Origin: Patescibacteria group bacterium | GTDB taxonomy: Bacteria; Patescibacteriota; Minisyncoccia; HO2-45-28 | NCBI GenBank assembly: GCA_038064075.1 | Contig: JBBTTU010000002.1 | Span: 1-49,380, forward strand | Length of the DNA stretch: 49,380 nt | Reading direction: 5' to 3' | Part shown: positions 6,445-43,242 of the stretch, in pieces | Numbering within the stretch: position 1 is the stretch's first letter | Layout of the letters: each line of letters starts with the position of its first letter | The notes under the pieces: generated by a model | Seen by the model: the letters and a program-made list of their open reading frames with translations, nothing else | The model's database searches: none | What the model was told of the DNA's origin: nothing | Made by a program: the position numbers and the translations under genes

Positions 6445-6487
6445 ATCCCTTCCTAAAACAATAATTTCAGGCTACAATGAAATAACA

Positions 6488-8158
6488 ATGGCCGAAAACA
6501 ACGCAAACTTTCAAGCTAAACTTGAAAAATTCCGCGAAAAAGAAGCCGAGGATCTGGCCCGGATGCTGGCTCAAAAACACGGCCTGCCCTACGCCGATCT
6601 TTCGCTGATGACCATTGATCTGGATGCTTTAAAATTAGTCGCCGAGCCTGAAGCCAAAGCAAGCAAAACAGCCGTTTTCCAAAAAGTCGGCAAAAGGCTG
6701 CAGGTTGCGGTTTTAAACCCGGATTTGCTGAAAACCAAAGATATTTTGGAGGACTTGGCGCGCAAAGGATACCAAACCGAACTTTTTCTGGTTTCGGAAG
6801 AAGGATTAAAGCGGGCTTGGTCGCGATACAAAGAAATTCCGGCTTTTGAAGAAATTGAAACCGGACTGATTGATGTTTCTTCGGCCCGGCTTGAAGAGTT
6901 TCAAAGCCAATCCAAAAATATCCAAGCTTTTCAAAAACTGATGGCGCCTTATGTCCAGGCTCAAAACATAAGAAAAGTTTCGGAAATTGTTGAAGCCATT
7001 CTGGCCGGCGCTTTGGCGCTTGACGCCTCTGACATTCACCTTGAACCGGAAGAAAAAAAAATGAAAATACGTCTTCGCTTGGACGGCGTTTTGCACGAAG
7101 TGATTGATTTTAATCTCAAAGCCTATAATCTGGTCCTCTCGCGAATCAAACTTCTGGCTGAAATGAAGCTCAATGTCCATGACCGGGCCCAAGACGGCCG
7201 CTTCACCATCAGAACCAAAGGTCAGGATATGGAAGTCAGAACTTCATCTCTGCCCGGTCCGTTCGGCGAAACCATGGTTTTAAGGGTGCTTAACCCGAAA
7301 ACAATCGCTTTGACTCTGGAGAATCTCGGCATGCATCCCGAATTTTTAAAAACAATAGAACAGGAACTGAAGCGGCCGAACGGAATGATATTGACAACCG
7401 GCCCGACCGGATCGGGAAAAACAACGACTCTTTACGCTTTTGTCAAAAAAATAAACGAACCGGGCGTTAAAATCATAACCATAGAAGATCCGATTGAATA
7501 CCACATCGCCGGCATCAGCCAGACTCAGGTTGACGCTCCCAAAGGCTATACTTTTTCCAACGGCTTAAGGTCAATTTTGCGCCAAGATCCCGATATTATT
7601 CTGGTCGGCGAAATCCGAGACCTGGAAACAGCCGAAATCGCCATGCACGCCGCCCTTACCGGACATCTGGTCTTTTCAACCCTTCACACCAATAACGCCG
7701 CCGGCACCATTCCGCGCTTAATTGATTTAAAAACCGATCCGGCCATCATCGCTCCGGCAATTAATGTCGCCATGGCTCAAAGGCTGATCCGCCGGCTTTG
7801 TCCGGATTGCAAAAAGAAAGAAAACCCGAACGCCGAAGAAAAGAAAATAATAGAACGCTCGCTTAAAGACACTCCCGAAAAATACAAAAAAAATCTGCCA
7901 AAAGAAATTAAGCTTTGGCGTCCGGCCGGCTGCGAAACCTGCAATCAAATCGGCTACAAAGGCCGGGTCGGTATTTACGAAGCCTTTTTGGTGGATGATC
8001 AGGTTGAAAAACTGGTCTTGAAGCGGCCGTCCGAAGCTGATTTAAAAAATGAAATGAAAAGACAGGAAATGATAACAATGTTTCAGGACGGCATTTTGAG
8101 GGTTGTAACCGGAATAACATCGCTGGAAGAATTGATAAGAGTAAGCGGCCGGGAATAA
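6488..8158 (+). CDS. pilB: Type II/IV secretion / type IV pilus assembly ATPase (GspE/PilB family)
   Basis: Walker A GPTGSGKTTT, DPDIILVGEIRD, His box GHLVFSTLHTN, and tetracysteine CPDC...CETC. Start moved from 6377 to ATG 6488 (MAENNANF) because the upstream 37 codons run through the palindrome and promoter-like region. Confidence 0.88.
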   Translation: MAENNANFQAKLEKFREKEAEDLARMLAQKHGLPYADLSLMTIDLDALKLVAEPEAKASKTAVFQKVGKRLQVAVLNPDLLKTKDILEDLARKGYQTELFLVSEEGLKRAWSRYKEIPAFEEIETGLIDVSSARLEEFQSQSKNIQAFQKLMAPYVQAQNIRKVSEIVEAILAGALALDASDIHLEPEEKKMKIRLRLDGVLHEVIDFNLKAYNLVLSRIKLLAEMKLNVHDRAQDGRFTIRTKGQDMEVRTSSLPGPFGETMVLRVLNPKTIALTLENLGMHPEFLKTIEQELKRPNGMILTTGPTGSGKTTTLYAFVKKINEPGVKIITIEDPIEYHIAGISQTQVDAPKGYTFSNGLRSILRQDPDIILVGEIRDLETAEIAMHAALTGHLVFSTLHTNNAAGTIPRLIDLKTDPAIIAPAINVAMAQRLIRRLCPDCKKKENPNAEEKKIIERSLKDTPEKYKKNLPKEIKLWRPAGCETCNQIGYKGRVGIYEAFLVDDQVEKLVLKRPSEADLKNEMKRQEMITMFQDGILRVVTGITSLEELIRVSGRE

Positions 8159-19030: not shown

Positions 19031-20194
19031 TTAGTCAGCTAGTTTAAGGCTCCAAAGCGAGTTGTCGTATTTATTGGAGAAATAAAGGAATTTGTCATCC
19101 GCGGAAATACCAATCCGGTTTATGTCAAAAAAACCTTCGGAGTTTATGATTTTTTTCTCGCCGGTTTCAAGATTAATTTCCCAAAAAATATCAACAAATG
19201 AAACTTTGCCCCGCAGCCACTCATCGGGATAAAGAGCCTGTGGCGGATTTTGGTCGGCGGCGCAATAGACGCTCTTTTTAGTTTTGGCAAAAACGCATTT
19301 TGAAGCCAGAGTCGCGGTTTCCAAGTCTCCGGCAATTTTGTTTTTAACGTCATAAAAGAAAAGTTTAGGTTTTTGGCCGCCGGCGTCATAAGCCGAATAA
19401 ATAATTTTTTGGCCGTCGGGCGACCACCCGGCCTCAAGCCCGTAAACACCCCCGATCACTTTTTCAAAAATCCCTTTTTCCAGATCGTATTTGAATAAAA
19501 ATCCGAGCGCGATTCCGGACGGCCGGCTCAAATAGGAAAGAGTGTTTTTTTCGGGCCAAGAAATTTCCCAGTCTTGAAACGGCGAGCCGGTAATTTCTTT
19601 TTGTTTGGTGTTATCAGGATCGGCGCCGACGGTTCTTGAACCGTTTTCCGACGGCAAGAGATAGACAATCCGGTCGCGATCCGGCGCCCAAGCCAATGAG
19701 GTTAAAGACGCCGGTAAAACTACAGCTTGAGTTGAAGTGGCTTTAAATTCGGCTGAAATTATTCTGACGTCGCCCTCAACAAAATATTTAAGAATTGCCC
19801 GCGAAGCGTCCGGCGACCAGTCTTGGGCTTGGAAAATTTTGGGAATGGTTGTGTTTGAGATTCTGGTTTGCTCTTCGCCTTGCGGGCCGATATCTGCAAC
19901 ATGGCCGGTCTGGCGAAGAACAAAGCGAACGCCGTTTTTAGTGACTGCAAATCCAGCAATCGGCTCGGATGAAAGCAGGGTCAGAACTCTTTTTTCCGGT
20001 TCGGTCGGAATTTTAATTTCGGCCGGCGCCGGCGCTTCTTCGCCCGGGCCGAAAAAACTGGAAGAAAAGCGCTGAAAAATTCCGCGTTCCGGTTCGGTCG
20101 TTTCCGGCGCCGGCCGGACAACCAGCCAAATCGCCCCGGCAGCGATAACCAGTATGAAAAATATTATCAATCCTATTTCAAGCGGTTTATTCAT
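19031..20194 (-). CDS. Membrane-anchored PD40/TolB-like beta-propeller repeat protein
   Basis: N-terminal TM helix. Repeated W(S/A)PD motifs: WSPDASRAIL, WAPDRDRIVYL, WSPDGQKIIYSA. Last gene of the T4SS-like gene string. Confidence 0.6.
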   Translation of the reverse strand: MNKPLEIGLIIFFILVIAAGAIWLVVRPAPETTEPERGIFQRFSSSFFGPGEEAPAPAEIKIPTEPEKRVLTLLSSEPIAGFAVTKNGVRFVLRQTGHVADIGPQGEEQTRISNTTIPKIFQAQDWSPDASRAILKYFVEGDVRIISAEFKATSTQAVVLPASLTSLAWAPDRDRIVYLLPSENGSRTVGADPDNTKQKEITGSPFQDWEISWPEKNTLSYLSRPSGIALGFLFKYDLEKGIFEKVIGGVYGLEAGWSPDGQKIIYSAYDAGGQKPKLFFYDVKNKIAGDLETATLASKCVFAKTKKSVYCAADQNPPQALYPDEWLRGKVSFVDIFWEINLETGEKKIINSEGFFDINRIGISADDKFLYFSNKYDNSLWSLKLAD

Positions 20195-20224
20195 TGTTTT
20201 TAATCAATTTAATCATATTGCTTT

Positions 20225-20836
20225 TTATTTTTTTGATTCTTTTCTAAAATCTAAACAAACAAACAGACGTTCATTTTCTTTCTGACATTTGTCGCTGGTT
20301 TGGAAACCGACTAAATCAGGTCTTGCAAGGCTCCCGCCTATCTGTGAGCACCCAGCAATGTTTTGCATCATAACCGCAGTATTTTTGATATCAAGACATA
20401 TAGATTTATCCAAAGCAACAGTTGACAGTTGAATTGTTGACGGCACATTGACCCTCGGCTCCTGCAGTTTAACCAGATTGGGATTGATTGTGTTTAAAAT
20501 AAGCCAAGAGGATAAAGCTAAAGCCAATCCGCCAATCGCGGCTGCGATCATTTTTTTGGCGGCATCAACTTCCGGCGGAGAGATTGCTCCGGCCATCCAT
20601 TTAAAACCGGCAAAAATCAGCATTACTACCGCCAAGATCGCGCTGGCGGAGAGCATAATCGGAAAAAGCCATTGCAAAAAACCAATAAAATTGGTGTTAA
20701 ATTTTTCAAATTTTGCAACAACTTCAGTTGTAATCGGCGTGTCGGTATTCGGCGGCACTAAATAGACTTCTGCCAACAGCGTCAGCGGCAGCGCAAAGAA
20801 AATTATTAAAATAACGGCAAGCGATTTATTGAACAT
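20225..20836 (-). CDS. VirB2/TrbC-like T4SS pilin candidate with Cys-containing C-terminal extension
   Basis: Signal-like N-terminus, then two hydrophobic helices separated by a short loop (FPIMLSASAILAVVMLIFAGF ... AAAIGGLALALSSWLILNTINPNL). C-terminal ~70 aa carry 4 Cys. Confidence 0.45.
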   Translation of the reverse strand: MFNKSLAVILIIFFALPLTLLAEVYLVPPNTDTPITTEVVAKFEKFNTNFIGFLQWLFPIMLSASAILAVVMLIFAGFKWMAGAISPPEVDAAKKMIAAAIGGLALALSSWLILNTINPNLVKLQEPRVNVPSTIQLSTVALDKSICLDIKNTAVMMQNIAGCSQIGGSLARPDLVGFQTSDKCQKENERLFVCLDFRKESKK

Positions 20837-21860
20837 TGATTTGAAAGCCGGCCCGGGCCTGCTGCAAAATATTAACGGCGTGCTTAATCAGCAGGTCAAC
20901 CGAAACCAGACCTTGGGCCCCGGCCGCGGCGCTTAAATTTAAAATGTTAAACGGCGCCGTTTTTTCGGTCGGCTGGCCGTCAACCGTCCAGTTATAATTC
21001 AATCCCAATTTGAGATCGGATTGGCCGGGAATCAAAGAGAAAAAAAACGGCTCGGCCTTGAACATTTTGGCCTCTCCGCTTAAAATCGCAAAAGGACTGA
21101 AAGGATCCAAAGCAAAGTTCATCCGCGGCCCTTCCAGCGGATGCTCTTCATAAAAGAGAACCAAAGTATCTTTAACCGGAATAATTACGGTTTTTTGGGC
21201 AGCGATATTTCCGTTTAAGTTTGAAACCTGCAGTTCAACCGCATGTTCAACATCGCTCGCCGGCCGGGTTTGAAAAGAAAAATTTTGTTTTCCGGCTCCG
21301 GAAGATTTTTGTTTGAAATCGCCGTCAAGCGACCAGCGGTAAATCAGCTCGGAGCCGGCTATTTCCCGTCCGCCGGACATAAGATGAGGAAAAGCGGTGA
21401 CGATAACGTTCGAACGAAGAGAAGGCAGAGTTTTGCCTTGGTACCAGTCCGGCCGGCTGGTTGCGGCCCGCCACAAAAAATCAATGTCAGAGACAACAAA
21501 TGACAAAGAAGCTGAATATTTTTGTCCGCCATTGGCAAGGGCTTCAACCCGCAGATTTTCACGCCCGCCCAATTTCCCGGCTTGAAATCGGTATTCTCTC
21601 AAACCCAGCCCTTTTGCGGCAACTTTGCCGTTGTGATTCCAGACGACTTCGGCGCGGTCAATGTCAAAACTAAAGCCATTGATGCGGGCGTAAACATTTT
21701 GGCTCGGGCCGGGTGTTTCGGGAACAAGCTCAATGAAAAAAGTTTCAGGCGAAGCGTTTTTTAAAAGGCTTTCCAGATCAAGTTCGGCGCCGGCCAAAAG
21801 CGGCAAACTGAAAAAAACAAAACCAACCGTGATTATTAAATTTAAATATTTTTTAAACAT
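20826..21860 (-). CDS. Secreted protein, unknown family
   Basis: Start placed at the internal Met (MFKKYLNLIITVGFVFFSLPLLAGA signal peptide). The upstream 13 codons lack one. Co-directional in the T4SS-like operon. Confidence 0.5.
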   Translation of the reverse strand: MFKKYLNLIITVGFVFFSLPLLAGAELDLESLLKNASPETFFIELVPETPGPSQNVYARINGFSFDIDRAEVVWNHNGKVAAKGLGLREYRFQAGKLGGRENLRVEALANGGQKYSASLSFVVSDIDFLWRAATSRPDWYQGKTLPSLRSNVIVTAFPHLMSGGREIAGSELIYRWSLDGDFKQKSSGAGKQNFSFQTRPASDVEHAVELQVSNLNGNIAAQKTVIIPVKDTLVLFYEEHPLEGPRMNFALDPFSPFAILSGEAKMFKAEPFFFSLIPGQSDLKLGLNYNWTVDGQPTEKTAPFNILNLSAAAGAQGLVSVDLLIKHAVNILQQARAGFQINVQ

Positions 21861-21904
21861 GCTGTTATTGCGAGCCGGGCTATAATATCCAGTATACACC
21901 CAAT

Positions 21905-23764
21905 TTATTGTTTTTGGATTCCGCTTTCGGCAAATTCCTGTTTTGCTTTTTTAATCGCCAGCAATTGATGCGGGTCGGAAGTGATAATCTGGTCTTCGGT
22001 GTAGGAGCTGATTATTTTTATGGCGACATGCTTCAAACCGGCGAAGAAAATGCCTTCGCCGACATCCGATTCCAAAATAAGGAATTTTTCCTCGTCGGTC
22101 AGGTTAAAAGTTTTCTGGACTAGATCAATCGTCGCCGGCGACTGCTTTAAAAGCAGCTGCATTGAAGAGTTGGTGATAATCGGCACGCCGTAGGGCGACT
22201 GCAAAAAATCGCCGACATCCTGGGTGATGGTCGCGACTCCCAAGAAGTATTTTCTGGCCCGTTTGGCAATGCCGAAGAGGAACGAGGCGCCTTGCTCTTC
22301 TTTCATCAGCCACCAGGCCTCGTCAATGACCAAAAGCCTTTTTTTGACGTCTTTTCGGACAGCGTTCCAGATGTAGTGGATGATCAGATACATTGCGATC
22401 GGGCGCAATTCGTCTTCCATGTCGCGCACCGAAAAAACAATCAATTTTTTGTTGATATCAACATTGGTCGGCTGATTGATGAATCCGGCCCAGGTGCCTT
22501 GGGTGTATTTGCGCATTTTCTGGGCAAGGCCATCGGCTCCTTCCATATTGGCCAGAACTAATTCCAAATCCGAAAGAATCGGCGGTATTTTGGAGGCAAA
22601 ATCGGTGTCGGCGGTAATGTCGCGCGAGGCGTAAGTTTCGTTGATGGCCCGGTCCAGAATTGAATCTTCTTCCGGCGTCAGGCCGCCCAGCATTATCCGG
22701 AAAAGCCCGATCAGATTGATGATGTTTGAACGCAGAACATCGGCCGGATCTTCGTCTTCGCGGGCCGCCGGCAGTTCAAAGGGATTGATGTGATGAGTTG
22801 AGGTCAGAGAAATGTTGAAGTAGCGGCCGTCCACCGCTTCGGCGAGGTACTCGTATTCCCGTTCGGGATCAATGATGATGACATCGGTGTCAAACATCAG
22901 CGAGCGCAGTATTTCCAGCTTGGTGGCATAACTTTTGCCCGCGCCGCTTTTTGCGAAGATGACCGAATTGAAATTTTCAAGGCTGAAACGGTCAAAAAGG
23001 ATCAGGCTGTTATTGTGGCGGTTGACTCCGTAAAGAATGCCTTTGTCCGAAGTAAGATCAAAAGAAACAAACGGGAAAAGGCTTGAGATCGGCGAAGAAT
23101 TGAGGCGGCTGTTGATGCCGAGAATGTCGCGGCCGAGCGGGAAGACCGTGAGCGCCCCTTCGGTCTGCTGGAAAAGAGCCGGTTTGGCGTAAACCATTTT
23201 GGCTTCAAGCATTGAACGGATTTCGGATTCTTCGCGGTTCAGCTCCTCAAGATTATCGGCATAAACAGTGATGTAAAGGCCGAAAGAAAAAAGTTTTTCC
23301 TGAGCCTGTTGGAGTTTGTCGCGCAGTTCTTCAAGATTTTGATGGGCGGCATCCAGCATCGGGTCGCGGACCAGTCCTTTTTCTTCGCGCATATGGATTT
23401 GGGACTGGACTTCGGCCACTTTTTTTTGGAGCTGGCGCAAAACCGAAGCGGTATCCATCGGATGGATATAAATTGAAACGTCAAAAACCTTGTCCAAATT
23501 GATAATCGGGCTGAACCAGTTGATGGCCAAAAATTTAGGATAAGAAAAAACAAAAAGGGTTCGGGCGACCTTTTCGCCGATTTTGATGAAATTGGAGCTT
23601 ACTTCAAGGGCCGACGGCGCGATAATGTCTTTCAATTCCAAAACCGCGGCCTCGTAAATTTGCTCGGGCTGGACCGCGATTATCGCTTCTTCCTCTTTTT
23701 CTTTTTTACTGAAAAAATCTTTTAAAGCCATTTTATATTTTTTAGCCTCGTATTTGCGGGGCAT
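21905..23764 (-). CDS. virB4: VirB4/TrbE/TraC-type T4SS ATPase
   Basis: 619 aa. Walker A IFAKSGAGKSYATK and Walker B RLLVIDEAWW. N-terminal domain pattern ARTLFVFSYPKFLAINWFSPI..VSIYIHP is typical of Gram-positive VirB4. An alternative start is Met12 at 23731. Confidence 0.85.
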   Translation of the reverse strand: MPRKYEAKKYKMALKDFFSKKEKEEEAIIAVQPEQIYEAAVLELKDIIAPSALEVSSNFIKIGEKVARTLFVFSYPKFLAINWFSPIINLDKVFDVSIYIHPMDTASVLRQLQKKVAEVQSQIHMREEKGLVRDPMLDAAHQNLEELRDKLQQAQEKLFSFGLYITVYADNLEELNREESEIRSMLEAKMVYAKPALFQQTEGALTVFPLGRDILGINSRLNSSPISSLFPFVSFDLTSDKGILYGVNRHNNSLILFDRFSLENFNSVIFAKSGAGKSYATKLEILRSLMFDTDVIIIDPEREYEYLAEAVDGRYFNISLTSTHHINPFELPAAREDEDPADVLRSNIINLIGLFRIMLGGLTPEEDSILDRAINETYASRDITADTDFASKIPPILSDLELVLANMEGADGLAQKMRKYTQGTWAGFINQPTNVDINKKLIVFSVRDMEDELRPIAMYLIIHYIWNAVRKDVKKRLLVIDEAWWLMKEEQGASFLFGIAKRARKYFLGVATITQDVGDFLQSPYGVPIITNSSMQLLLKQSPATIDLVQKTFNLTDEEKFLILESDVGEGIFFAGLKHVAIKIISSYTEDQIITSDPHQLLAIKKAKQEFAESGIQKQ

Positions 23765-24428
23765 GTCCCCTTTCCAGCTCGCCCGGGTTGAACAATCCGT
23801 AATAAAGCTCTATCAATTCCTCGGTGTTTAAAGGAGCGGTTCGCACGCCGGCGCCGGCAATGGCGCCCGAAATCGTTTCCACTCTTTGCCAGAGCTGGGT
23901 TTTGTATTCTTCAAATTTTTCGTCTTCAAGTTTTTTGGCCGAAGCCGTCTCTTTTCTGCCGAAAAGACCGGTAAATATGCTCCCGATTCCTTTGGCGCCT
24001 CCGGCTAAAAAAGGCGGGACGAACGTCGCTACGATGTAGAAACTTTTGCGGACAATCTTGGTGGTTTCAACAAAAGACCGGACAAACTCAATATATTCGC
24101 GGGTCTGTATTTTTAACAGTTCATTGATTTGGTTTTTCTCGGCCGCCCGCAGGTTTTCCAGATACGGCTCAATATTGAGCCGGCGCGATTGAATCATGAC
24201 CTGAACCGAAAAATCAAGGGCGTTTAAGAAATTCTGATATTGACTGGTGATGGCTTCCTGTTCATCGGCCGACCGGAGCGCGAAATTCAAAGAAGAGGCC
24301 ATCAACACCATATGCATGTTGCCGTCTTCGGTAATCACGATGCCGTCGCGGATTTCGCGGATCGGAACAAAGTCTTGGGATGCTTTTCCTTTAATAGCGG
24401 GCATATTATTTGATTTTTTCTTTAACAT
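23742..24428 (-). CDS. T4SS-associated protein resembling the N-terminal region of Gram-positive VirB4-type proteins
   Basis: 228 aa. The QDFVPIREIRDGIVITEDGNMHMVLMASSLNFALRSADEQEAI pattern is shared with conjugation ATPase N-termini. No P-loop. Confidence 0.45.
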   Translation of the reverse strand: MLKKKSNNMPAIKGKASQDFVPIREIRDGIVITEDGNMHMVLMASSLNFALRSADEQEAITSQYQNFLNALDFSVQVMIQSRRLNIEPYLENLRAAEKNQINELLKIQTREYIEFVRSFVETTKIVRKSFYIVATFVPPFLAGGAKGIGSIFTGLFGRKETASAKKLEDEKFEEYKTQLWQRVETISGAIAGAGVRTAPLNTEELIELYYGLFNPGELERGHAPQIRG

Positions 24429-24816
24429 CCAGCGACCAGGCCAGATCTTTTAATTTGCTTTCGGTTATTTTCGGCAATTCCAATTTCGGCGTCTCTTTAT
24501 GAATTTCGGCGCCGGCCGGTTTGGCGGCTTTAGTTTCTTTTTTCTGCCAGATGTAAAGTTTGGAGGCGGTGTAATGAGAGAGCGCGCTCGCCGCGATTTT
24601 GATAAAAGGCTGGCCGTTTATTTTGTAAAAAGCCAAAGCCGCGGCGAATCCGGCGATCGGCAAACCCAATAAAATGAACCCAATCATTCCGGCAAAGACA
24701 TAAATGATAAATGCCGCCGCTCCTCCGCCCAAAAGATAAATAAACTGTTTCAGGGTCAGCGGCCCGAAAATTTTGTCTTCTACTTCTATAAATTGCGGGA
24801 CATTGAATTGGCGCAT
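24406..24816 (-). CDS. PrgI-family (VirB3-like) membrane protein
   Basis: 136 aa. N-terminal VPQFIEVEDKIFGPLTLKQFIYLLGG is followed by two TM helices. Confidence 0.55.
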   Translation of the reverse strand: MRQFNVPQFIEVEDKIFGPLTLKQFIYLLGGGAAAFIIYVFAGMIGFILLGLPIAGFAAALAFYKINGQPFIKIAASALSHYTASKLYIWQKKETKAAKPAGAEIHKETPKLELPKITESKLKDLAWSLDVKEKIK

Positions 24817-24818
24817 AG

Positions 24819-25328
24819 TTAATTTACCGGTTCTTTATAAGGATCGGCATCGCCCGGGTATCTTTGTTCTTTTCTGGCTTCATCCACTTCTTTTTTGATT
24901 GATGAGGGCGGCTTGAATACCTCGCCTTCCAGTTTTTGTTCAAAGGGCGATCCCCCCGCGCTTTTAAATTCTTCAGTTTTTTTGGTTTCGGGCGTTGATT
25001 TAAAGTTTTTTTCTCCCCCGATCTCATGAATCTTTTTCAGCGATTCTTTTATCGGCGCGAAAATTTGTTCGTTTGTTTCTGCGGCCAGATTTTTTATAAT
25101 TTCCGCGTCAAGTCCCAAACGCTTTTGGAGATTGGCGATATAGTTTTTGGGATGAGTCAGACCCATAATCACGTTCATTGTTTCATCGTTTAATTCGCCG
25201 ATTTTATCAATCGCCAGATTGTATTTTTTGCCGATCGCCATCATTTTATCGGCAACATCTTCGGAGAAAACGGCGTCGCGCAAATCTTGCGGCAGTCCAG
25301 ATAATTGTTTTTGAAATTCTTCAGTCAT
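24819..25328 (-). CDS. Hypothetical soluble protein, K/E-rich C-terminus
   Basis: 169-aa ORF, co-directional, 3 nt from the next gene. No motif recognised. Confidence 0.45.
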   Translation of the reverse strand: MTEEFQKQLSGLPQDLRDAVFSEDVADKMMAIGKKYNLAIDKIGELNDETMNVIMGLTHPKNYIANLQKRLGLDAEIIKNLAAETNEQIFAPIKESLKKIHEIGGEKNFKSTPETKKTEEFKSAGGSPFEQKLEGEVFKPPSSIKKEVDEARKEQRYPGDADPYKEPVN

Positions 25329-25369
25329 ATTTTATTTTATCTTTTATCGCCTTTTTGTTAAAATTATTT

Positions 25370-27664
25370 TTATTTGGGCAAGCCGAGCCGTCTCACTCCG
25401 TTGATTTTTATCCAAGCCGCGGCCGGACTGTTTGAATCTCGCAGTTTGTCAGTAATTTCTTTGATATCGTCTCCCATATTTTTTAATTTCAGAACAAATT
25501 CATCAAAAATTTTGCCTCCTCGCATAACAATGTCGCCAACCTGCTTAGTGTTTAATTTATTTAGCATGTCCATTACTCGGTAGCCGCCGCTGTCGCGTTG
25601 ATATATTGCCGCATCTTCCGAGATTTCGGCAAAATCAATTTTGTTGATAATCTCGGCGTATGTTTTGCCAATTCTTTGAGCCTGAAGCGGCAAAACGGAG
25701 AGAGCGTCATCCGCTCGTCCCGGGCGAAGAGTGTTGATGCTTGAAACAAAATCTCCGCCGCGCCCGATTTTATCATAAGACTTGGCAACTTTTTGTATTT
25801 CATCTTTCCGCCATGAATTGATAATGAAACCTTTAAGATTATCGGTCAAAGAATCAAAAGAAAGGATAATTTGATCTGTCGGCAGTTTAAGGATAAATTG
25901 GCCGTATTCGGAAGCAAATCTTTGCTGTCTTTCAGCCGAAGATCGGTCAAGGTTATTTCCGATGGTTGTTCGGATGGAACCAGCGTTGCTGTGATAAAGA
26001 GCGGCCAGATCAGTTGCCGATGTTTTTTCGCGGACAAAATTCTCCTGCATTTGTGCGGGAAGGCTGTTAAAGAATGTCGGCCGCTCGGTTTCGGGAGTGA
26101 GTTTAAACTGCTCGTAACGGATATTTTCTTGTTTTTTGCCGCCAAGTCGCGTTATAACATTTTCAATTTGCTGTTTTTGTTGTCGGGGGATAGCCGGATT
26201 CGTCAGTATTTGTGCCATTTCATTATCAGGTAAAGTGTTAATGATATTCTCTCGGGCAGTAAGACCCAGAGTTGACAGATAAGTGGCCCGATCCCGCGGC
26301 GAAAGGAGTTTGGCCGATTCCAGTTGCCGCGCCCGGATTTTTTCCAAACCGCCCAAAGTTTTGGCTTTTTCAAGCTGGCGCGCCACGGCTCCTCCCATCA
26401 TTCCGCCGACAAGAGGTATGTGCGAAAGCCCTCTGACAATCGCTCCTCTTCTTTCTTCAGTGGAAAGAAGCTCGGCTCCTCGGCCTATTCCTCTGCCCAC
26501 TCCTCGCGTTCCGAGTCCAATCGCTCCGCCGGCAAATCCGCCGATGTATTTTTGAGCGCCTTTTGCCAAACTCAATGTCATTGCGGCGCCGGCTCCGCCC
26601 ATAGATTTGGCGACAACAAGGCTGATAAAAAGCATCATAGCCAGCAAAAGATAATAAAGAACAACCGTCGGATTTGAAATAAAAGCTTTGCTGGTGTCTA
26701 TATTTGCGTCAAATACTTGGTTTGCGCCGTCCGAGATCATGTTTAAAGTAATGTTGAACAAAAAGAAAAAAGCGACCGGCCAGAATGATTGATTCAGCAA
26801 AGTGCTCCACCATTTATTGGCTTCGCCTGACAAGCCCGGCAAAACCCAGAACAGAAACGCGACCGGCGAAAGAATCATTAAAAACCAAAGGATGACTATT
26901 CTTGCCAAAAGAAGAATAACAACCGTTCCCAAAACGAATATCGCGACCAAGAGCAGAACGATATTTGCGGTCATAACGATCATTGCTCTCCTTAAAGCCG
27001 CGCTGATTGTATTTTCTTTAGTATCCAATTCTTTTTTTAGTTCTTCATATTTTTTTATTTCTTTTTCTGTTACGTCTGGGTTTTTAAACCTACCGCCATA
27101 AAGATCTTCTGAACTTCCGTATATTTTTAATTCCATTTTTCTAAATTCCTCCGCTTTTTTCTCGTAATCAGTGTCATTTCCAATGTCTTTTAATTCAAAA
27201 GACGCAAACATGGCATTTGGATTCAGTCCGGCTGCAAATTGTTCAGAAAATCTTATAGATTTATACTCTCCTTTTGGCATAAAAAGCGATGCCATGGAAT
27301 TGGCGGCAAAAATCACGTATTGAGAAGCCAGAAACGAGAAATTAATAAAGATAGCGGCAATAATAAGATTGGGCAGAAGTTTTTTGGCGCCGTAGCGTTC
27401 AATCTGAAGAATCGTCGCGATGGCGATTGTAAGGAGAATAAAAATAAAAAATAAATTGGCAGTGTCGCGGGCGATCGTCCAGCCGTTGTAAATTGCGGGA
27501 ATGTTGTAGATTTTGGGATCAAAAACATAAAGAATCACCCAATCAAAAAGCATGCCGGTAATGCCGAAAAACGTCGCAACCGCCTCCATAAGCCAGTAAA
27601 CTATCCAAGCCAGCGCGTTCAATACCGCGTTGCCTCCCCCGAATAAATTAAATAAAAATTCCAT
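25370..27664 (-). CDS. VirB6/TrbL-like polytopic membrane protein with long C-terminal domain
   Basis: Start placed at Met20 (MEFLFNLFGGG, ATG 27664), 5 nt after the upstream stop. The N-terminal half has multiple TM segments, then a Gly-rich stretch and a ~350-aa soluble tail. Confidence 0.55.
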   Translation of the reverse strand: MEFLFNLFGGGNAVLNALAWIVYWLMEAVATFFGITGMLFDWVILYVFDPKIYNIPAIYNGWTIARDTANLFFIFILLTIAIATILQIERYGAKKLLPNLIIAAIFINFSFLASQYVIFAANSMASLFMPKGEYKSIRFSEQFAAGLNPNAMFASFELKDIGNDTDYEKKAEEFRKMELKIYGSSEDLYGGRFKNPDVTEKEIKKYEELKKELDTKENTISAALRRAMIVMTANIVLLLVAIFVLGTVVILLLARIVILWFLMILSPVAFLFWVLPGLSGEANKWWSTLLNQSFWPVAFFFLFNITLNMISDGANQVFDANIDTSKAFISNPTVVLYYLLLAMMLFISLVVAKSMGGAGAAMTLSLAKGAQKYIGGFAGGAIGLGTRGVGRGIGRGAELLSTEERRGAIVRGLSHIPLVGGMMGGAVARQLEKAKTLGGLEKIRARQLESAKLLSPRDRATYLSTLGLTARENIINTLPDNEMAQILTNPAIPRQQKQQIENVITRLGGKKQENIRYEQFKLTPETERPTFFNSLPAQMQENFVREKTSATDLAALYHSNAGSIRTTIGNNLDRSSAERQQRFASEYGQFILKLPTDQIILSFDSLTDNLKGFIINSWRKDEIQKVAKSYDKIGRGGDFVSSINTLRPGRADDALSVLPLQAQRIGKTYAEIINKIDFAEISEDAAIYQRDSGGYRVMDMLNKLNTKQVGDIVMRGGKIFDEFVLKLKNMGDDIKEITDKLRDSNSPAAAWIKINGVRRLGLPK

Positions 27665-27669
27665 AAGTT

Positions 27670-29214
27670 TTAAGTAGAAATAGACCCGGAAGAATTGGTG
27701 TTTTGGGATGGATTTTTGCAATCATTTAATTCTTTTTGGGTATCTGAAAGTTGTTTTTGCAGATCGGCCAGTTCCAAATTAGCCGCGCCTATTTCTTCGT
27801 CAGTGCGGATGTCTTGATGGGCTTGTCTCAACTGCCTTTGCAAAAATTCAAACTTTACCGGAGCTTCTTCGGTTTCAATCTGTTCTTTCAGGTCTTCAAT
27901 GGCTTCAATTTTCTTTTCAGAAGCCGTTATTTCGTTCTCAATCGGTTCCAGACGTTTTTTATTAAGATCGTCCGTTATAATTTTAATTTCATTTTTATTT
28001 TTTCCTTGGCATATTTCTATTTCTTCTCCGGTTGTTGAAATGACTTTTTTTACGACTTCAACCGACTCTTTTTTTATTTTGATGTAATCGTTTTCTCTTT
28101 CAATGATTTGATCCGCCAACGTCAAAAGATCCGGCTTCATATTTTCAATCAGAGGATTGATGCTTGGAGGCGGCGGCGCCTGATAGCCGGCCACGCCTCC
28201 TTTTCCGGTCGTCAGCAATTTGCCGACGCCGAGCCGCAACAGAGCCGAAAGTATTTTGTTGAAAGAATCGGCCAGTTCAAGCCCGGTCAGGTCAGTTTTA
28301 AAAACAGCCGAAAGTTTGTCCGCGATTACCGCGCCCGGCGTTGAATTTGTGTATTTTTCACAAGGCTGAGTCGGGTCCTGTTCTTCTAGAACTGTTTTTC
28401 CGGTTTCAGGGTCTTTATAATGATCTATTACTCCGGTTGGTATTCCGTCGGCGTCTTCTTTGTAAACCGGAACGGATCCGGCTTTAATTGACGTAGGATA
28501 CTTTTGACATGTCTTAAAGCCAAGAAATCCTTTGCCGGAATCAATTTCGGCTTTTACGCCGGCTGTTTTTTCAAGAGCTTTGGCGTGCATCTGGTCCATT
28601 TTTACCAGAAAAGTTCCGAAAGCATTGTTATTGGTCTGGGTTGAAATTGCCAGAAACGACTGCCAGCCGCCGGTTTGAAAATTGGCGTACATTTGTTCAA
28701 CATTCATTCTGATGTCGGCAAAAGTGCATTTGGGCGGGGGCGCGACAGCCGAAAAAAGATTAACGACCAGTTCAAACCGGAACGGACTGCAGATAAGATT
28801 CAACTGATCCGGCGTTAGCATTTTTTCCAGAAAAAGGCCGGACGCCAGGTTGCCCGAAGTTTTTAAAAATCCTTCAAAATCAGTGATAAAAAGAGGTTGG
28901 CCCTCAAAGCCGTTGTTAATCCAGTTGACAATGTCGTCTGTAAGCGTCCTTAATGCCGCATTTGCGATCGCAAGGCCGATTGATTCCAGTATTTCATTTT
29001 TCAAACAATCCCAGCTCATGCTGGGAGGAATAATAGAATAACAGCTTTGAGTCGTTGGAATTGCCACTGCATTGCCGGCTCCGGACGGAGTGGCGCCGGC
29101 GGGCAGGGCATAAGCTTTTTCGGCAATGGAAAAAAGAGCGATAAACGATCCAAGCTCGCTTATCAGCAAAAGGGCGGCGATATATTTTTTTGATTTTGAA
29201 AAGCTCATTGTCAT
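27670..29214 (-). CDS. Secreted protein with C-terminal coiled coil, unknown family
   Basis: 514 aa. Signal/TM N-terminus. C-terminal heptad-like E/K/Q-rich region. ATGA overlap with the upstream gene. Confidence 0.5.
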   Translation of the reverse strand: MTMSFSKSKKYIAALLLISELGSFIALFSIAEKAYALPAGATPSGAGNAVAIPTTQSCYSIIPPSMSWDCLKNEILESIGLAIANAALRTLTDDIVNWINNGFEGQPLFITDFEGFLKTSGNLASGLFLEKMLTPDQLNLICSPFRFELVVNLFSAVAPPPKCTFADIRMNVEQMYANFQTGGWQSFLAISTQTNNNAFGTFLVKMDQMHAKALEKTAGVKAEIDSGKGFLGFKTCQKYPTSIKAGSVPVYKEDADGIPTGVIDHYKDPETGKTVLEEQDPTQPCEKYTNSTPGAVIADKLSAVFKTDLTGLELADSFNKILSALLRLGVGKLLTTGKGGVAGYQAPPPPSINPLIENMKPDLLTLADQIIERENDYIKIKKESVEVVKKVISTTGEEIEICQGKNKNEIKIITDDLNKKRLEPIENEITASEKKIEAIEDLKEQIETEEAPVKFEFLQRQLRQAHQDIRTDEEIGAANLELADLQKQLSDTQKELNDCKNPSQNTNSSGSIST

Positions 29215-30251
29215 AAGGCGCTGGTTTGGTTTAATTGCTTGTCAATTTCAACGAATATATATCCGTCTTCGCCGGTTTTAAATTCAATGCCGTCAACCAG
29301 AAATTTGATTATGAGTCCCGAGAGCGCGGCGGAAGAACGTTTTACTTCCTGCTGATAATCATTTATGGCTAAAATGCCTTTGAAAGGATCGGCGCCGAAA
29401 TTGCTGAAAACGGCGTTGATCGCGGCAAAATTGTTGAAACTGCCGGCTATATCGGCGTGATAGGCGGCGTAATCCGGCGGAACCGCGAGGGCGCGCATTT
29501 TGGCCGCCGAATCAAGATAGGCTTTTTGATAATCTTTAAAAATGCTCAGTCCTTCATAATCTCCGTTTTCAGACGCCTCGGTCAAAATATCTTTTAAAAG
29601 CAGCATTTCATTCAATGAATTTTTTTTAAATCCCGATTTGATTATTGCGCCCAAAGCATTGGCGTAATTTTTGATGTTTTCTTTGGAATTGCTGGAGAGT
29701 TTGGCATCCTTGGCTGAAAATGAGCCGGTTGGCGCGGGACCGCTTGATTTTTGTTCTTTTTCAAGCCTGGAAATCAAGGAATTGTAAAGTTCTTCTTGAA
29801 TCTGGTTGTCGTCCAGTCCCTGATTTTTTAAAGAAACATAATCGCTAAAAAAATTGCGGGCAATGTCGGCGCTAAGAGTTGATTTTTTTTCTTCGGCGTT
29901 AGATTCGTCCGGCAGCCGCTTTTTGGCGGATTGAGTCGCGTCCAAAGAATCGGGCGGCGGCTTTAAAGGATTGCGGCCGAGCTTTATTTCCTGTCCGTCA
30001 GGCGCGCCGTCGCCGTCAGTGTCGGGATTGTTCGGGTTAGTTCCCCACAGCCGCTCTTCCCAGTCTTTAAGGCCGTCGCGATCCGAATCGGGATTTTCAT
30101 CAGCCGTTTTAGATACTGCGGCCGTCAGAATTTTTGGCTGATTTTGAATTCCGGGCTGCCGATTTCGGTAAATGAACCAAAATCCGCCTGCAACCACGGC
30201 CAAGGCTAAAATCAGACTTAAAATTATTTTTTTGTTCGCAAAAAATGTCAA
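29211..30251 (-). CDS. Membrane-anchored protein with thrombospondin type-3-like Ca-binding repeats
   Basis: TTG start and N-terminal TM helix. DSDRDGLKDWEE and DTDGDGAPDGQE are DxDxDG motifs. First gene of the operon. Confidence 0.55.
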   Translation of the reverse strand: MTFFANKKIILSLILALAVVAGGFWFIYRNRQPGIQNQPKILTAAVSKTADENPDSDRDGLKDWEERLWGTNPNNPDTDGDGAPDGQEIKLGRNPLKPPPDSLDATQSAKKRLPDESNAEEKKSTLSADIARNFFSDYVSLKNQGLDDNQIQEELYNSLISRLEKEQKSSGPAPTGSFSAKDAKLSSNSKENIKNYANALGAIIKSGFKKNSLNEMLLLKDILTEASENGDYEGLSIFKDYQKAYLDSAAKMRALAVPPDYAAYHADIAGSFNNFAAINAVFSNFGADPFKGILAINDYQQEVKRSSAALSGLIIKFLVDGIEFKTGEDGYIFVEIDKQLNQTSAL

Positions 30252-30277
30252 AATTTCGGGTCGTTTGACCCTACTTT

Positions 30278-30286
30278 ATTATAGCA
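30278..30286 (-). promoter_or_regulatory. Extended -10 element TGCTATAAT (minus strand)
   Basis: AATGCTATAAT lies ~27 nt upstream of the TTG start at 30251. The same 11-mer occurs at the uvrD promoter. Confidence 0.4.
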
Positions 30287-30322: not shown

Positions 30323-30331
30323 TGTGGATAA
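30323..30331 (-). promoter_or_regulatory. Perfect DnaA-box consensus (TTATCCACA on minus strand)
   Basis: TGTGGATAA on the + strand, about 40 nt upstream of the -10 of the T4SS-like operon. Confidence 0.4.
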
Positions 30332-30372: not shown

Positions 30373-30750
30373 TTAACAGAAAAGATTGAGGCCGGCTGCC
30401 ATTCCCACAACGAAAACTCCGAAAGTTATTCCGAGATGGCTGGTTTTGTAGCCGTAGCCCAAGACCAAATTGCCGGTGCAGGGAGGACCGATCAGTCCGG
30501 CGACTGCCCAGACACTGGCCATTTCAGGAGAAGTTGGTTTTACCACAATTACAGCCGGACCGCCGAGTTTGCCCCACAGGCCGGTTCCTACGCCGACAAT
30601 GATGATTCCGCCGACAAAAGCGAAATCGCCGCCGGCGGCGTAAATGAAACTGGTCGGCAACAAAAGAGGCGTTAAAGCCAAAGAGCAAATTATCATCGCC
30701 GGAATTATTTTAGCCATTATTTTAAGTTTAACACGATTAGTTTCATTCAA
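30373..30750 (-). CDS. Small glycine-rich hydrophobic protein (hypothetical)
   Basis: 125 aa (alternative start Met12 at 30717). Signal-like N-terminus ending IYAAGG, then GxxxG-rich hydrophobic segments. Confidence 0.4.
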   Translation of the reverse strand: MNETNRVKLKIMAKIIPAMIICSLALTPLLLPTSFIYAAGGDFAFVGGIIIVGVGTGLWGKLGGPAVIVVKPTSPEMASVWAVAGLIGPPCTGNLVLGYGYKTSHLGITFGVFVVGMAAGLNLFC

Positions 30751-33498: not shown

Positions 33499-33507
33499 AT
33501 TATAGCA
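33499..33507 (-). promoter_or_regulatory. Extended -10 element TGCTATAAT for uvrD/pcrA (minus strand)
   Basis: Only 9 nt separate the hexamer from GTG 33489, which implies a leaderless or near-leaderless mRNA. Confidence 0.4.
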
Positions 33508-33517: not shown

Positions 33518-33526
33518 TGTGGATAA
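33518..33526 (-). promoter_or_regulatory. Perfect DnaA-box consensus (TTATCCACA on minus strand)
   Basis: TGTGGATAA on the + strand, overlapping the expected -35 position of the uvrD promoter. Confidence 0.4.
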
Positions 33527-33541: not shown

Positions 33542-33570
33542 TTGACTTTCGGCCTTGGCAGGGCTAGTAT
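33542..33570 (+). promoter_or_regulatory. Sigma-70-like promoter TTGACT-17-TAGTAT
   Basis: TTGACT 33542-33547, a 17-nt spacer, then TAGTAT 33565-33570. Points at the LysM/M23 gene. Confidence 0.4.
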
Positions 33571-34730
33571 TAAATAGAACCGCAAGCTTAGCGGTTTCTT
33601 TATTACAGAAAGGCCGAGCAAGTCCGTTTTCCTTTAATTTAAACCTTATTTTAGAAATATACGAATGTTCTGCCGATCAATCTCAAAGATCCGGCAAGAA
33701 CTATATAAAACCTTTTAAGAAACTTTTTTGGCCAAAGAACCTTTTGGTCATTGGTTTTGTTTTTGGCTTGTTTTTAGCCGCCGTTTCTCCGGCCGAAGCC
33801 GGCATTTTTAATATAATTAAAAATATTTTTAAATCCGAGGTTCAAGTCGAGACCGCTGCGGTTTTCAACATCCAGAATATGCCGCTTTTGGATGCTCCGA
33901 CCAATATTGATCCTTTGGCCGGCACCGGCGGCGGTGAAATAAATATTGTTCAGAATAACGCTCTTTTGCCGGTCACCGGACCGATGGGCAGCATTGCCGA
34001 TATTGATGTTAACGCCAAAAATAACAGTCAAATTTCAGTGTATATTGTGCGCGACAAAGATAATCTTTCAAGCATTGCCAAAATGTTCGGAGTTTCGGTC
34101 AATACTATTATTTGGGCCAATGATCTTAAACGCGGCGATCTGATCACTCCCGGCCAGACTTTGATCATTCTTCCGGTTTCGGGCGTCCAATATGTTGTCA
34201 AAGACGGCGATACTTTGCCGGCTATTGCCAAAAAGTTTAAAGGCGATGTTGACGAAATCATTAATTTTAATGACTTGCCGGCCAGCGGCCCGCTGGCAGC
34301 CGGCCAGACTATTGTTATTCCAAATGGAGAATCATATCTGATTGCGACTCCTTCGCGTTTGCTCGGCGGCGGCGGACCAAGCTATAGCGGTTATTATATC
34401 CGGCCGGTTGCCGGCGGACGAAAAAGCCAGGGACTTCACGGCTATAACGGCGTAGACTTGGCTGACTACTGCGGAGCTCCGGTTGTCGCTTCGGCTTCGG
34501 GCGACGTGATTGTCAGCCGGACTTACGGCTGGAACGGCGGATACGGGCTTTATGTCGTGCTTAATCATCTTAATAACACTCAGACTCTTTACGCTCATTT
34601 GAGCAAAATTGCGGTGCAAAGCGGCTGGCATGTGGTTCAGGGACAGGTGATCGGCTACATCGGTTCAACCGGCAATTCCACTGGCTGCCACGTTCATTTT
34701 GAGGTTCGCGGCGCGAAAAATACTATTTAA
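33555..34730 (+). CDS. LysM-domain M23 family metallopeptidase (start uncertain)
   Basis: Two LysM-like segments (YIVRDKDNLSSIAKMFGVSVNTIIWAN; YVVKDGDTLPAIAKKF). M23 motifs HGYNGVDLA and GNSTGCHVHFEVR. The listed TTG 33555 lies inside the predicted promoter. In-frame TTG 33744 would give MVIGFVFGLFLAAVSPAEA. Confidence 0.8.
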   Translation: MAGLVLNRTASLAVSLLQKGRASPFSFNLNLILEIYECSADQSQRSGKNYIKPFKKLFWPKNLLVIGFVFGLFLAAVSPAEAGIFNIIKNIFKSEVQVETAAVFNIQNMPLLDAPTNIDPLAGTGGGEINIVQNNALLPVTGPMGSIADIDVNAKNNSQISVYIVRDKDNLSSIAKMFGVSVNTIIWANDLKRGDLITPGQTLIILPVSGVQYVVKDGDTLPAIAKKFKGDVDEIINFNDLPASGPLAAGQTIVIPNGESYLIATPSRLLGGGGPSYSGYYIRPVAGGRKSQGLHGYNGVDLADYCGAPVVASASGDVIVSRTYGWNGGYGLYVVLNHLNNTQTLYAHLSKIAVQSGWHVVQGQVIGYIGSTGNSTGCHVHFEVRGAKNTI

Positions 34731-40687: not shown

Positions 40688-41596
40688 GTGCGACATAACG
40701 ATCTCCAAAAAATTTATAAGGAATTCCTGGCGTATCTGGAAATTGAAAAAGGCCGGAGCTTGAAAACGCTTGATAATTACAGCCGCTATCTGAATGTTTT
40801 TTTTAGTTTTGCCAAGATTGGCTCGCCGGCCGGCATCAACGAAGCTGTTTGCCGCCAGTTCCGTTTATGGCTTAATCGCAGGAGTCTTAAAAAAAAGACC
40901 CAGAATTATTATTTGATAGCCCTGCGCGGATTTTTAAGATATCTGACAAGGCGCGGAATTGAAAGTTTGCCGGCTGAAAAAATTGAACTGGCCAAAACGC
41001 CGGAGCGCCAGATTGATTTGATCAATAATGATGAACTGGAACGCCTGCTTTCTTCAGCCGGTGGTTCGGACCCAAAATCGCTTCGCGACCGCGCCATGCT
41101 TGAACTTCTTTTTTCCACCGGCTTGCGCGTCTCGGAATTATGCGCTTTGAACCGCGATTCAATCAGCGTCAAAAAAGGAGAATTCAGCGTCCGGGGAAAA
41201 GGCGATAAAGTTCGCGTTGTTTTTCTTTCGGACAGTGCTAAAAATGCTCTTGAAAATTGGTCTGATAAACGCGCTGATCTGAATCCGGCTCTTTTTGTCA
41301 ATTTTAAGCCCGGCCAAAAAGCGATTGATGAATCGGCCCGGCTTACTCCTCGCTCAATTGAAAGAATTATCAAACATTATTCTACCAAAGCCGGCATAAC
41401 CAAAAAAGTGACGCCGCACGTTATCAGACATTGTTTTGCAACCGACTTGCTTGAAAACGGAGCTGATTTGCGTTCGGTTCAGGAACTTCTGGGACATGCT
41501 AACATCGCAACCACGCAAATTTACACTCACGTAACCGATCGCCGGCTCCGCGAAATCCACCAAACTTTCCATGCCATAAAAAGAAAAACCGTTTAA
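40688..41596 (+). CDS. Tyrosine recombinase, XerC/XerD type
   Basis: 302 aa, GTG start. RDRAMLELLFSTGLRVSEL, HVIRHCFATDLL and LGHANIATTQIYTHV give the R..HxxR..Y catalytic set. Confidence 0.85.
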   Translation: MRHNDLQKIYKEFLAYLEIEKGRSLKTLDNYSRYLNVFFSFAKIGSPAGINEAVCRQFRLWLNRRSLKKKTQNYYLIALRGFLRYLTRRGIESLPAEKIELAKTPERQIDLINNDELERLLSSAGGSDPKSLRDRAMLELLFSTGLRVSELCALNRDSISVKKGEFSVRGKGDKVRVVFLSDSAKNALENWSDKRADLNPALFVNFKPGQKAIDESARLTPRSIERIIKHYSTKAGITKKVTPHVIRHCFATDLLENGADLRSVQELLGHANIATTQIYTHVTDRRLREIHQTFHAIKRKTV

Positions 41597-41711: not shown

Positions 41712-41721
41712 CATTGTAAAA

Positions 41722-43182: not shown

Positions 43183-43242
43183 ACTTGCCGTCGCTCGGCA
43201 AACGGGCTTTGCCCGCCGAAGTCGAGCTGTGGCGAGGCAAAG

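Follow-up and report, generated by a model that had tools for sequence, protein, structure and literature searches.

Positions 1 to 49,380 of contig JBBTTU010000002.1 from a Patescibacteria group bacterium of the ultra-small Parcubacteria type (assembly GCA_038064075.1), the whole stretch analyzed here and referred to as the window, contain at 19031-30251 a ten-gene operon centered on virB4. Taken as a whole, this operon is very probably a chromosomal, conjugation-derived type IV secretion system (T4SS) of the Patescibacteria, with expression linked to DnaA and a role at the host interface. The system descends from monoderm conjugation machinery of the mating-pair-formation (MPF) type MPF-FATA whose DNA-processing module was lost, and the operon belongs to the core chromosome, not to an integrative and conjugative element (ICE). 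Such systems were described between 2023 and 2025, and hence this one is not new at the phylum or class level. The details that are new with respect to the papers we read (a DnaA box in the promoter, the family defined by the N-terminal module of the second gene product, pilin-hydrolase fusions, the terminal peptide of the fourth gene product, and a protein with three immunoglobulin [Ig]-like domains) are leads, not demonstrations.

The genes, numbered g1 to g10 in transcription order, are co-directional open reading frames (ORFs) that fill the interval on the minus strand. An ATGA overlap at 29211-29214 joins g1 and g2, and the junctions range from -52 to +41 nt when the first start codon of each ORF is taken, with smaller values at the likely ATG starts. 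An extended -10 element, TGCTATAAT, is located at 30278-30286 (minus strand), with the TTG start of g1 27 nt downstream, so the tight packing behind one promoter claimed in a preliminary description of this DNA was borne out. The GC content of the cluster (0.43-0.49) falls inside the range of the window. Relatives were collected with a VirB4 protein search of one genome per GTDB species, which gave 67 loci (labels in the style of L001-L072 refer to related loci), and synteny was followed with iterated hidden Markov model (HMM) searches over all of their ORFs.

The VirB4 ATPase is g7 (21905-23764, 619 aa), which scored 380 bits against the NCBIfam model conju_CD1110 (cut-off 325) and matched Pfam P-loop_TraG (3e-25), with intact Walker A (GAGKS) and Walker B (LLVIDEAW) motifs; a PHROGs search found the expected VirB4/terminase P-loop resemblance and nothing else. 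The preceding gene, g6 (23742-24428, 228 aa), aligns to positions 2-105 of conju_CD1110, to positions 92-232 of VirB4_plasma, and also to TrsD, while its orthologues are annotated as PF26593 (TraC-like) in the related contexts. Since it matches the first ~100 positions of the VirB4 models as well as TrsD, g6 and g7 together represent a split VirB4, an arrangement like that of the pGO1/pIP501 subclass, and the 228-aa protein that had been listed as unrecognized belongs to the known TrsD-like family as a detached VirB4 N-terminal domain. The membrane protein encoded by g5 (24406-24816, 136 aa) is PrgI/VirB3-like (PF12666, 4.7e-11, above the gathering score) and was found in 64 loci. The largest protein, g3 (25370-27664 from an ATG, 764 aa, or from a TTG at 27721, 783 aa), has at least five transmembrane segments, a net charge of +17, and a basic hydrophilic tail of ~350 aa. 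The window protein itself gave no Pfam match and the profile of its tail found coiled-coil noise only among PDB sequences; 7 of 36 orthologues match Pfam TrbL/VirB6 (best 3.5e-10), and through them the VirB6-like call made earlier stands, g3 being classified on this similarity as an extended VirB6. The pilin candidate, g9 (20225-20836, 203 aa), has a signal peptide, a VirB2-type two-helix pilin domain at about residues 47-122, and an 81-aa C-terminal domain with four Cys residues. It matches T4SS_pilin at 1.3e-5, slightly below the gathering score (21 of 41 orthologues match), TrbC at 6e-3, and, weakly, the Mbov_0395 pilin-like family. The TrsD-like, PrgI/VirB3, VirB6, and VirB2-like genes all lie within six genes of virB4, and the VirB4, PrgI/VirB3, and pilin assignments made before any database search agree with these family matches.

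The same description had proposed an operon centered on VirB4 and VirB6 without a conjugation module, which also held. Pfam scans of the window ORFs of at least 100 aa up to position 43998 detected no relaxase, VirD4, VirB11, or VirB8/9/10, and the precomputed Pfam annotation of the related contexts placed no relaxase or type IV coupling protein (T4CP) in their flanks; a relaxase and a VirD4 with ICE boundaries, which would have spoken for a conjugative element, were found in neither the scanned window nor the related flanks. The accompanying statement that no integrase lies nearby has to be amended, the sole tyrosine recombinase of the scanned window being an XerC/D-like protein encoded at 40688-41596 (plus strand), 10 kb from the cluster. 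A search for flanking direct repeats of the ICE type returned chance-level matches only. None of the features of an ICE or plasmid T4SS (relaxase, T4CP, oriT, integration and excision, boundaries) was found in the scanned window, and the operon has neither the NTF2-fold VirB8-like protein nor the dedicated VirB1-like hydrolase gene of an MPF-FATA mating apparatus; the traits of the Patescibacteria type are present, namely, core T4SS genes near virB4, an origin-proximal position, and a locus free of relaxase and coupling protein. One flank consists of dnaN, dnaA, rnpA, yidC, and jag, and the other of rsmA (ksgA), uvrD/pcrA, a LysM-M23 peptidase gene, and comM. The set dnaN/dnaA/rnpA/yidC/jag plus rsmA(ksgA)/uvrD is the position pattern of the Paceibacteria and is conserved in the relatives. 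Pfam annotation, synteny, and the lack of repeats all agree with the earlier view that core genes flank the locus and that it is not an ICE.

The order rsmA-1-2-3-4-5-6-7-8-9-10-jag was recovered in almost all related loci. When the count was limited to the 28 loci that extend 9 kb or more upstream and 5 kb or more downstream of virB4, the ten genes were complete in 24 and nine were present in 2, while the two most distant loci had only g5-g6-g7 at the sensitivity of the search. Distant contexts seeded with g2 have the same layout as those seeded with VirB4, one of them right at the beginning of a contig of 617 kb. This ordered synteny and the g2-seeded contexts indicate that, in this class, the accessory genes and virB4 belong together as a fixed set and that the locus is inherited vertically; a lack of synteny between the unassigned genes and virB4, the other finding that would have counted against the preliminary description, was not encountered. 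Genes of the selfish-element type are inserted between the T4SS genes of some relatives (PDDEXK_3 twice, DUF559, and 23S_rRNA_IVP, at L071:19748-21326, L071:9190-9606, and L069:7812-8177).

VirB4 identity ranges from 44 to 89% across the 67 species loci, all of them from Parcubacteria/Paceibacteria metagenome-assembled genomes (MAGs), some with mislabeled record titles. The closest VirB4 proteins are those of Niyogibacteria (86-89% identity), a member of the Parcubacteria group, and other related lineages are Tagabacteria, Terrybacteria, Giovannonibacteria, Zambryskibacteria, Nomurabacteria, Taylorbacteria, Vogelbacteria, and Campbellbacteria. Judged from these relatives, the source organism is a Niyogibacteria-like member of the Paceibacteria, not of the Saccharibacteria, and the link to Saccharibacteria drawn in the preliminary description, correct for the literature, does not hold for this genome. 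The titles of many third-party annotation (TPA) MAG records with the cluster (L001, L004, L010, L055, L059, L060, and others) are unreliable as taxonomy, reading "uncultured Candidatus Saccharibacteria," "Gammaproteobacteria," or "Pseudomonadales." The median identity of VirB4 (71%) exceeds that of DnaA (48%), and VirB4 is the higher of the two in 30 of 30 paired loci and also above DnaN, YidC, RsmA, and UvrD in every paired locus, with the proviso, which tells against our interpretation, that loci retrieved via conserved VirB4 peptides bias VirB4 identity upward relative to other genes. The genes for extracytoplasmic proteins reach identities of only 26-31%.

The novelty implied in the preliminary description did not survive comparison with the literature, where the absence of relaxase and coupling protein, the pilins, and the position near dnaA/dnaN/rnpA/ksgA are all on record (PMC10633639; PMC12102498; PMC12857230). 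Wang et al. 2023 (PMC10633639) described in Southlakia epibionticum a T4SS with pilins and without coupling protein or relaxase, and this Saccharibacterial homologue is essential for epibiotic growth. Across 3,035 Patescibacteria genomes, Quinonero-Coronel et al. 2025 (PMC12102498) found a monophyletic Patescibacteria VirB4 clade nested in MPF-FATA, TrsD, PrgI/VirB3, VirB6, and VirB2 near virB4, and dnaA, dnaN, rnpA, and ksgA close to it in Paceibacteria; VirB8 and VirB1 homologues were few, no adhesins were found, and promoters, DnaA boxes, and pilin fusions are not mentioned. According to a review (PMC12857230), no T4SS other than that of the Patescibacteria is known to be essential to its bearer's growth, and a 2024 perspective (PMC11665869) called the role of the Patescibacteria system "completely unknown," floating effector delivery or DNA uptake.

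The window operon has the same grouping of VirB4, TrsD-like, PrgI/VirB3, VirB6, and VirB2-like pilin proteins as the Southlakia locus (SEML1_0006-0019), and it shares the relaxase- and T4CP-free, chromosomal, origin-proximal position reported for Paceibacteria (PMC12102498). However, Southlakia has a six-gene pilin array where the window operon has one pilin gene, and no lysozyme or peptidase gene follows virB4 here, unlike in Southlakia. The accessory set (a TSP3 anchor, the g2 module, g4, the protein with three Ig-like domains, and a TolB-like propeller) is not described in PMC10633639 or PMC12102498. With MPF-FATA systems (pCF10 Prg/Pcf, pIP501 Tra, and the Clostridioides difficile CTn-type CD1110), the operon shares a VirB3 of the PrgI type and a split N-domain of the TrsD type, its VirB4 scores above the CD1110 family cut-off, and the VirB7/9/10 outer-membrane parts are missing in both. 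Unlike them, the operon has no relaxase, T4CP, or oriT, no hydrolase gene of the PrgK/TraG type, and neither a VirB8-like (NTF2) protein nor an LPXTG adhesin, and it is chromosomal, vertically inherited, and equipped with a VirB2-like pilin, which is missing from the Gram-positive systems. A more distant likeness is to the Mycoplasma ICE (Mbov_0397 VirB4 and Mbov_0395 pilin-like), in that g7/g6 align to VirB4_plasma and g9 weakly to Mbov_0395, with scores below the cut-offs (272 versus 590 and 16.8 versus 40). Both systems come from wall-less or monoderm bacteria with reduced genomes, but the Mycoplasma system rides a mobile ICE with its own DNA-processing genes, and the window operon does not.

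Upstream of the extended -10 element, at a distance of 36 nt, lies a perfect DnaA box, TTATCCACA (30323-30331, minus strand). The motif TGnTAWAAT is conserved upstream of g1 in 21 related loci, and at 14 of these 21 extended -10 sites a box with at most one mismatch stands 25-39 nt upstream in the same orientation, compared with 3 of 279 other extended -10 sites, all three beside g1 or g2. The promoter sequence around the box is not conserved across the relatives. Perfect boxes number 34 in the ~1 Mb of loci; 17 of them precede dnaN/dnaA, where oriC is expected, and 7 precede g1, a distribution that indicates that the motif behaves as a true DnaA box and that, oriC aside, these loci carry it mainly at the T4SS promoter. 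Considering that the box is conserved in the operon promoter, it seems probable that expression is tied to DnaA and so to replication or nucleotide status. We found no mention of a promoter DnaA box in the papers on the Patescibacteria T4SS that we read.

Loci with a box at the conserved distance before g1 include L001, L003, L009, L015, L029, L050, L061, and L064. A second perfect DnaA box occurs in the window at 33518-33526 (minus strand), 10 nt upstream of a second TGCTATAAT at 33499-33507, and the pair precedes uvrD at the expected position of the uvrD/pcrA-rsmA promoter. The UvrD domain begins at residue 54 of the listed ORF, and therefore translation probably starts further downstream than this site. 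A short GC stem-loop, GGGTCaaacGACCC, is found at 30258-30271 (minus strand), between the -10 element of the operon and the g1 TTG start; at this position a stem-loop of different sequence is present in the closest relatives only (L001, L003, L005, L009, and L061). The TTG start itself is conserved in an "attTTG" context.

The claim that about half of the genes are unrecognizable proved to be overstated, since three of the six proteins listed as such (the TrsD-like, three-Ig, and TolB-type proteins) can be assigned. The product of g1 (29211-30251, 346 aa) has one transmembrane segment (residues 9-27) as its N-terminal anchor, bacterial TSP3 calcium-binding repeats (Pfam TSP3_bac, 3.7e-11), and then a domain of ~230 aa without family assignment; only the TSP3 part of its profile matched PDB, to a biofilm surface protein. 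The gene was found in 38 loci and is the first of the cluster each time. The g8 protein (20826-21860 from an ATG, 344 aa, the length also given by a database gene call, in an ORF that opens at a GTG at 21899) combines an N-terminal anchor with three repeats, each with an invariant Trp (W74, W176, and W291), which hhalign related to one another with 95-97% probability. An AlphaFold2 model from 6 sequences had a mean predicted local distance difference test (pLDDT) score of 41, with domain 1 alone confident, as a beta-sandwich, and the fold search, informative for this domain only, matched Ig/FN3/PKD folds. We considered g8 as the missing NTF2-type VirB8/TcpC-like protein, which its size and position would fit, and rejected this on account of the three Ig-like repeats. 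The last gene, g10 (19031-20194, 387 aa), codes for an anchored TolB-type beta-propeller (PD40, 8.5e-5; TIGR02800 TolB, 9e-6; ~1e-8 for the orthologue profile against PDB TolB chains).

In the 514-aa product of g2 (27670-29214), a signal or anchor segment is followed by a conserved N-module that contains Cys (about residues 60-345) and by a C-terminal coiled coil. No Pfam, NCBIfam, or PDB sequence match was found for the protein, nor any PDB sequence match for the profile of its N-module. An exhaustive profile search with the N-module found 6445 clusters at E<=1e-3, with 3576 still matching at E<=1e-30. The module is N-terminal throughout the family and is joined to a variable C-terminal part: of 44 long members, 13 have Bact_surface_Ig-like domains and 11 have F5/8 type C (discoidin) domains, others having SdrD_B or InlK_D3. 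AlphaFold2 (16-sequence alignment) gave a mean pLDDT of 59, with a confident coiled coil at 354-500 and an N-module that was not. From this domain architecture, the family layout is read as a conserved docking module with an exchangeable adhesin, and g2 is a candidate distal or adhesin subunit. One orthologue carries a Hint (intein-like) module. The 169-aa g4 protein (24819-25328) has no transmembrane segment; it has a conserved helical N-domain of ~95 aa and, beyond a linker that varies, a conserved DPY[RK]E(P) peptide at the C-terminus. This motif is family specific (44 of 46 occurrences are in the g4 family) and was found in 43 of 52 loci, and the protein matched no family and, in a profile search, nothing in PDB. 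Between virB4 and g8, the relatives, among them L001-L004 as the closest, encode one additional membrane protein of 125-170 aa (for example, L001:11824-12201 and L003:11839-12240), with an acidic N-terminus ("MAEQNQIENER...") and two to three transmembrane helices, represented by 39 ORFs across the loci.

The pilin domain is present in 41 of 41 g9 orthologues, and their C-terminal extensions fall into ~25 unrelated clusters among 38 sequences. Pfam detects peptidoglycan-hydrolase domains in about a quarter of the 41 (SLT in 3, VanY in 2, NlpC/P60 in 2, and M23, 3D, phage lysozyme, and M15 in one each), and catalytic motifs put them C-terminal to the pilin domain. By these motifs, L037 has an NlpC/P60 domain, L047 an M23 domain, L049, L051, and L052 have VanY domains, and L028 and L052 SLT domains. 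Long pilin orthologues had no match in single-sequence PDB searches or in tblastn searches of phage genomes, so the assignment of a hydrolase to each member derives from the Pfam summary and the catalytic motifs. The operon has no hydrolase gene of its own, such domains appearing only as pilin C-terminal fusions in some relatives. A LysM-LysM-M23 peptidase is encoded at 33555-34730 (plus strand), 3 kb upstream of the operon on the other strand, and all related contexts that were inspected (L068-L072 included) likewise have it ahead of uvrD-rsmA-T4SS and in the opposite orientation; it is a candidate wall-opening (VirB1-like) protein where the pilin has no hydrolase domain.

The analysis shows what the components are, their topology, their synteny and pattern of conservation, and the footprint in the promoter; with subunit roles drawn from knowledge of the T4SS family, the following mechanism can be proposed. 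VirB4 (g7) and its detached N-domain (g6) would dock on VirB3 (g5) and the extended VirB6 (g3) at the cytoplasmic membrane, and this complex would pull the VirB2-like pilin (g9) from the membrane to build a short pilus or conduit through the wall. The single-pass, extracytoplasmic proteins g1, g8, g10, and g2 would substitute for the missing VirB7-10 and for adhesins, with the calcium-binding TSP3 anchor of g1 forming, jointly with the other three, the wall-spanning, host-contacting part. In g2, a docking module would carry a variable distal stalk or adhesin as the host-binding subunit, and g4 would be a cytoplasmic adaptor with its C-terminal DPYREP peptide. A single extended -10 promoter with a DnaA box would drive the operon, DnaA modulating its transcription. 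The apparatus would work at the interface with the host cell, in contact and macromolecule exchange and not in conjugation. The exposed parts diverge fast and swap domains, in contrast to a highly constrained ATPase, which fits a host-interface machine, and the surface apparatus for host interaction suggested in the preliminary description is judged probable.

Several points weigh against this interpretation, besides the bias in VirB4 identity mentioned above. To our knowledge, no experiment exists for any Paceibacteria T4SS. The absence of relaxase and T4CP is that of a 49-kb window and not of a genome, and VirD4 homologues are far from virB4 in many Patescibacteria (PMC12102498). The assignment of this VirB4 to the Patescibacteria clade is suggested by the conju_CD1110 score and the taxonomy of the relatives, DnaA binding at the box is predicted from the sequence alone, and the roles of g1, g2, g4, g8, and g10 are deduced from position, topology, and domain type. 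The poor structural predictions for g2 and g8 give no fold-level assignment for the g2 N-module or g4. Finally, the small membrane-protein gene of the relatives is cleanly absent at 21860-21905, and neither tblastn nor HMM searches found it elsewhere in the window.

Regarding function, a host-contact conduit for protein export or import ranks first, followed by DNA uptake, a pilus-only organelle, and conjugation. DNA uptake, which would leave the identity of the system unchanged, has perhaps a small chance of being correct. According to this idea, the operon would encode a DNA or nucleotide uptake machine like Helicobacter ComB or archaeal Ced that imports host DNA. VirB2-, VirB3-, VirB4-, and VirB6-type parts without relaxase, T4CP, or VirB11 parallel Helicobacter pylori ComB (DNA uptake is raised in PMC11665869), and a promoter DnaA box would suit coupling to replication or nucleotide demand. 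However, ComB has VirB7-10 in a diderm envelope and no sequence-level affiliation with the window operon, so the likeness is compositional only, and the weak similarity to CedB (46 bits against a cut-off of 700) is expected of any VirB4, with CedD reaching 17.7 (cut-off 600). ComM, UvrD/PcrA, RuvB, RuvC, and a PilB-type ATPase are encoded in the neighborhood, but the recombination genes are housekeeping members of a conserved origin-proximal backbone. Moreover, no DNA-binding component was identified in the cluster, and Southlakia transformation needs ComEC, which is dispensable where the T4SS is essential (PMC12857230).

Somewhat less probable is an organelle limited to the pilus, in which a VirB2-type adhesive or lytic pilus would attach to the host and locally digest its envelope without translocation. 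The conserved pilin gene, the polymorphic pilin C-terminal domain with its hydrolases, the adhesin-type domains of the g2 family, and the lack of a substrate receptor (T4CP) in the scanned window all agree with it. However, the cytoplasmic tail of the extended VirB6 and the g4 adaptor suggest handling on the cytoplasmic side, the window pilin has only its 81-aa C-terminal domain, without family assignment, and the hydrolases of Gram-positive T4SSs serve to cross the bacterium's own wall (PMC12102498). Persisting conjugation, with these mating-pair-formation genes served in trans by a relaxase, T4CP, and oriT encoded elsewhere, is very improbable despite the conjugative ATPase family of g7, the distant VirD4-like genes, and a genome view limited to 49 kb, since relaxases occur in just 103 of 3,035 Patescibacteria genomes and seldom near virB4 (PMC12102498), the Southlakia t4cp homologue is non-essential and its T4SS essential (PMC12102498), and the same oriC-adjacent site in dozens of species together with a VirB4 more constrained than DnaA is what a core cellular function would show and a mobile element would not. 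Within the preferred reading of a host-interface T4SS, a bolder version would have a DnaA-controlled feeding organelle, made according to replication or nucleotide status, that is tipped by a protein of the g2 family with its exchangeable adhesin domains and drills into a specific host, with pilins whose wall-degrading or other C-terminal domains are exchangeable, to obtain macromolecules; as a package, we regard this as speculative and rather unlikely.

Other features of the window concern the surroundings of the operon. The cumulative GC-skew minimum and the dnaN-dnaA/rnpA arrangement place the origin at ~14-17.5 kb, and the dnaN-dnaA spacer is AT rich (GC 0.22) with two near-consensus boxes. 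With the origin there, the T4SS operon and the ~20 kb of genes that follow (19031-40263) would be on the lagging strand, head-on to replication; the convergent orientation of the operon with jag is kept in the relatives. A 125-aa Gly/Ala-rich ORF with three hydrophobic segments (30373-30750, minus strand) sits between rsmA and the operon promoter and overlaps the rsmA end by 8 nt. We found no homologue at the equivalent position in any related locus, and it may be a lineage-specific gene or no gene at all; it is not a homologue of the small membrane-protein gene of the relatives. The region 3332-8158, upstream of ruvB/ruvC, encodes a C39-like peptidase, two ATP-grasp/D-Ala-D-Ala-ligase-like proteins, and the PilB-type (T2SSE) ATPase. 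The XerC/D-like recombinase gene is directly upstream of a tRNA-Arg gene, three more tRNA genes follow (41640-44147), and the region 43000-49380 has low GC (0.33-0.37) and strong GC skew.

A large part of bacterial diversity belongs to the Patescibacteria, most of which seem to live on other cells. The operon described here leaves the general picture of their T4SS unchanged and supplies a clean example from the Paceibacteria in which the ten-gene composition is fixed. It also provides four testable leads, the promoter DnaA box, the candidate adhesin/tip family with its conserved docking module, the pilin-hydrolase fusions, and the g4 adaptor peptide, which could guide work in the few cultivated Paceibacteria.

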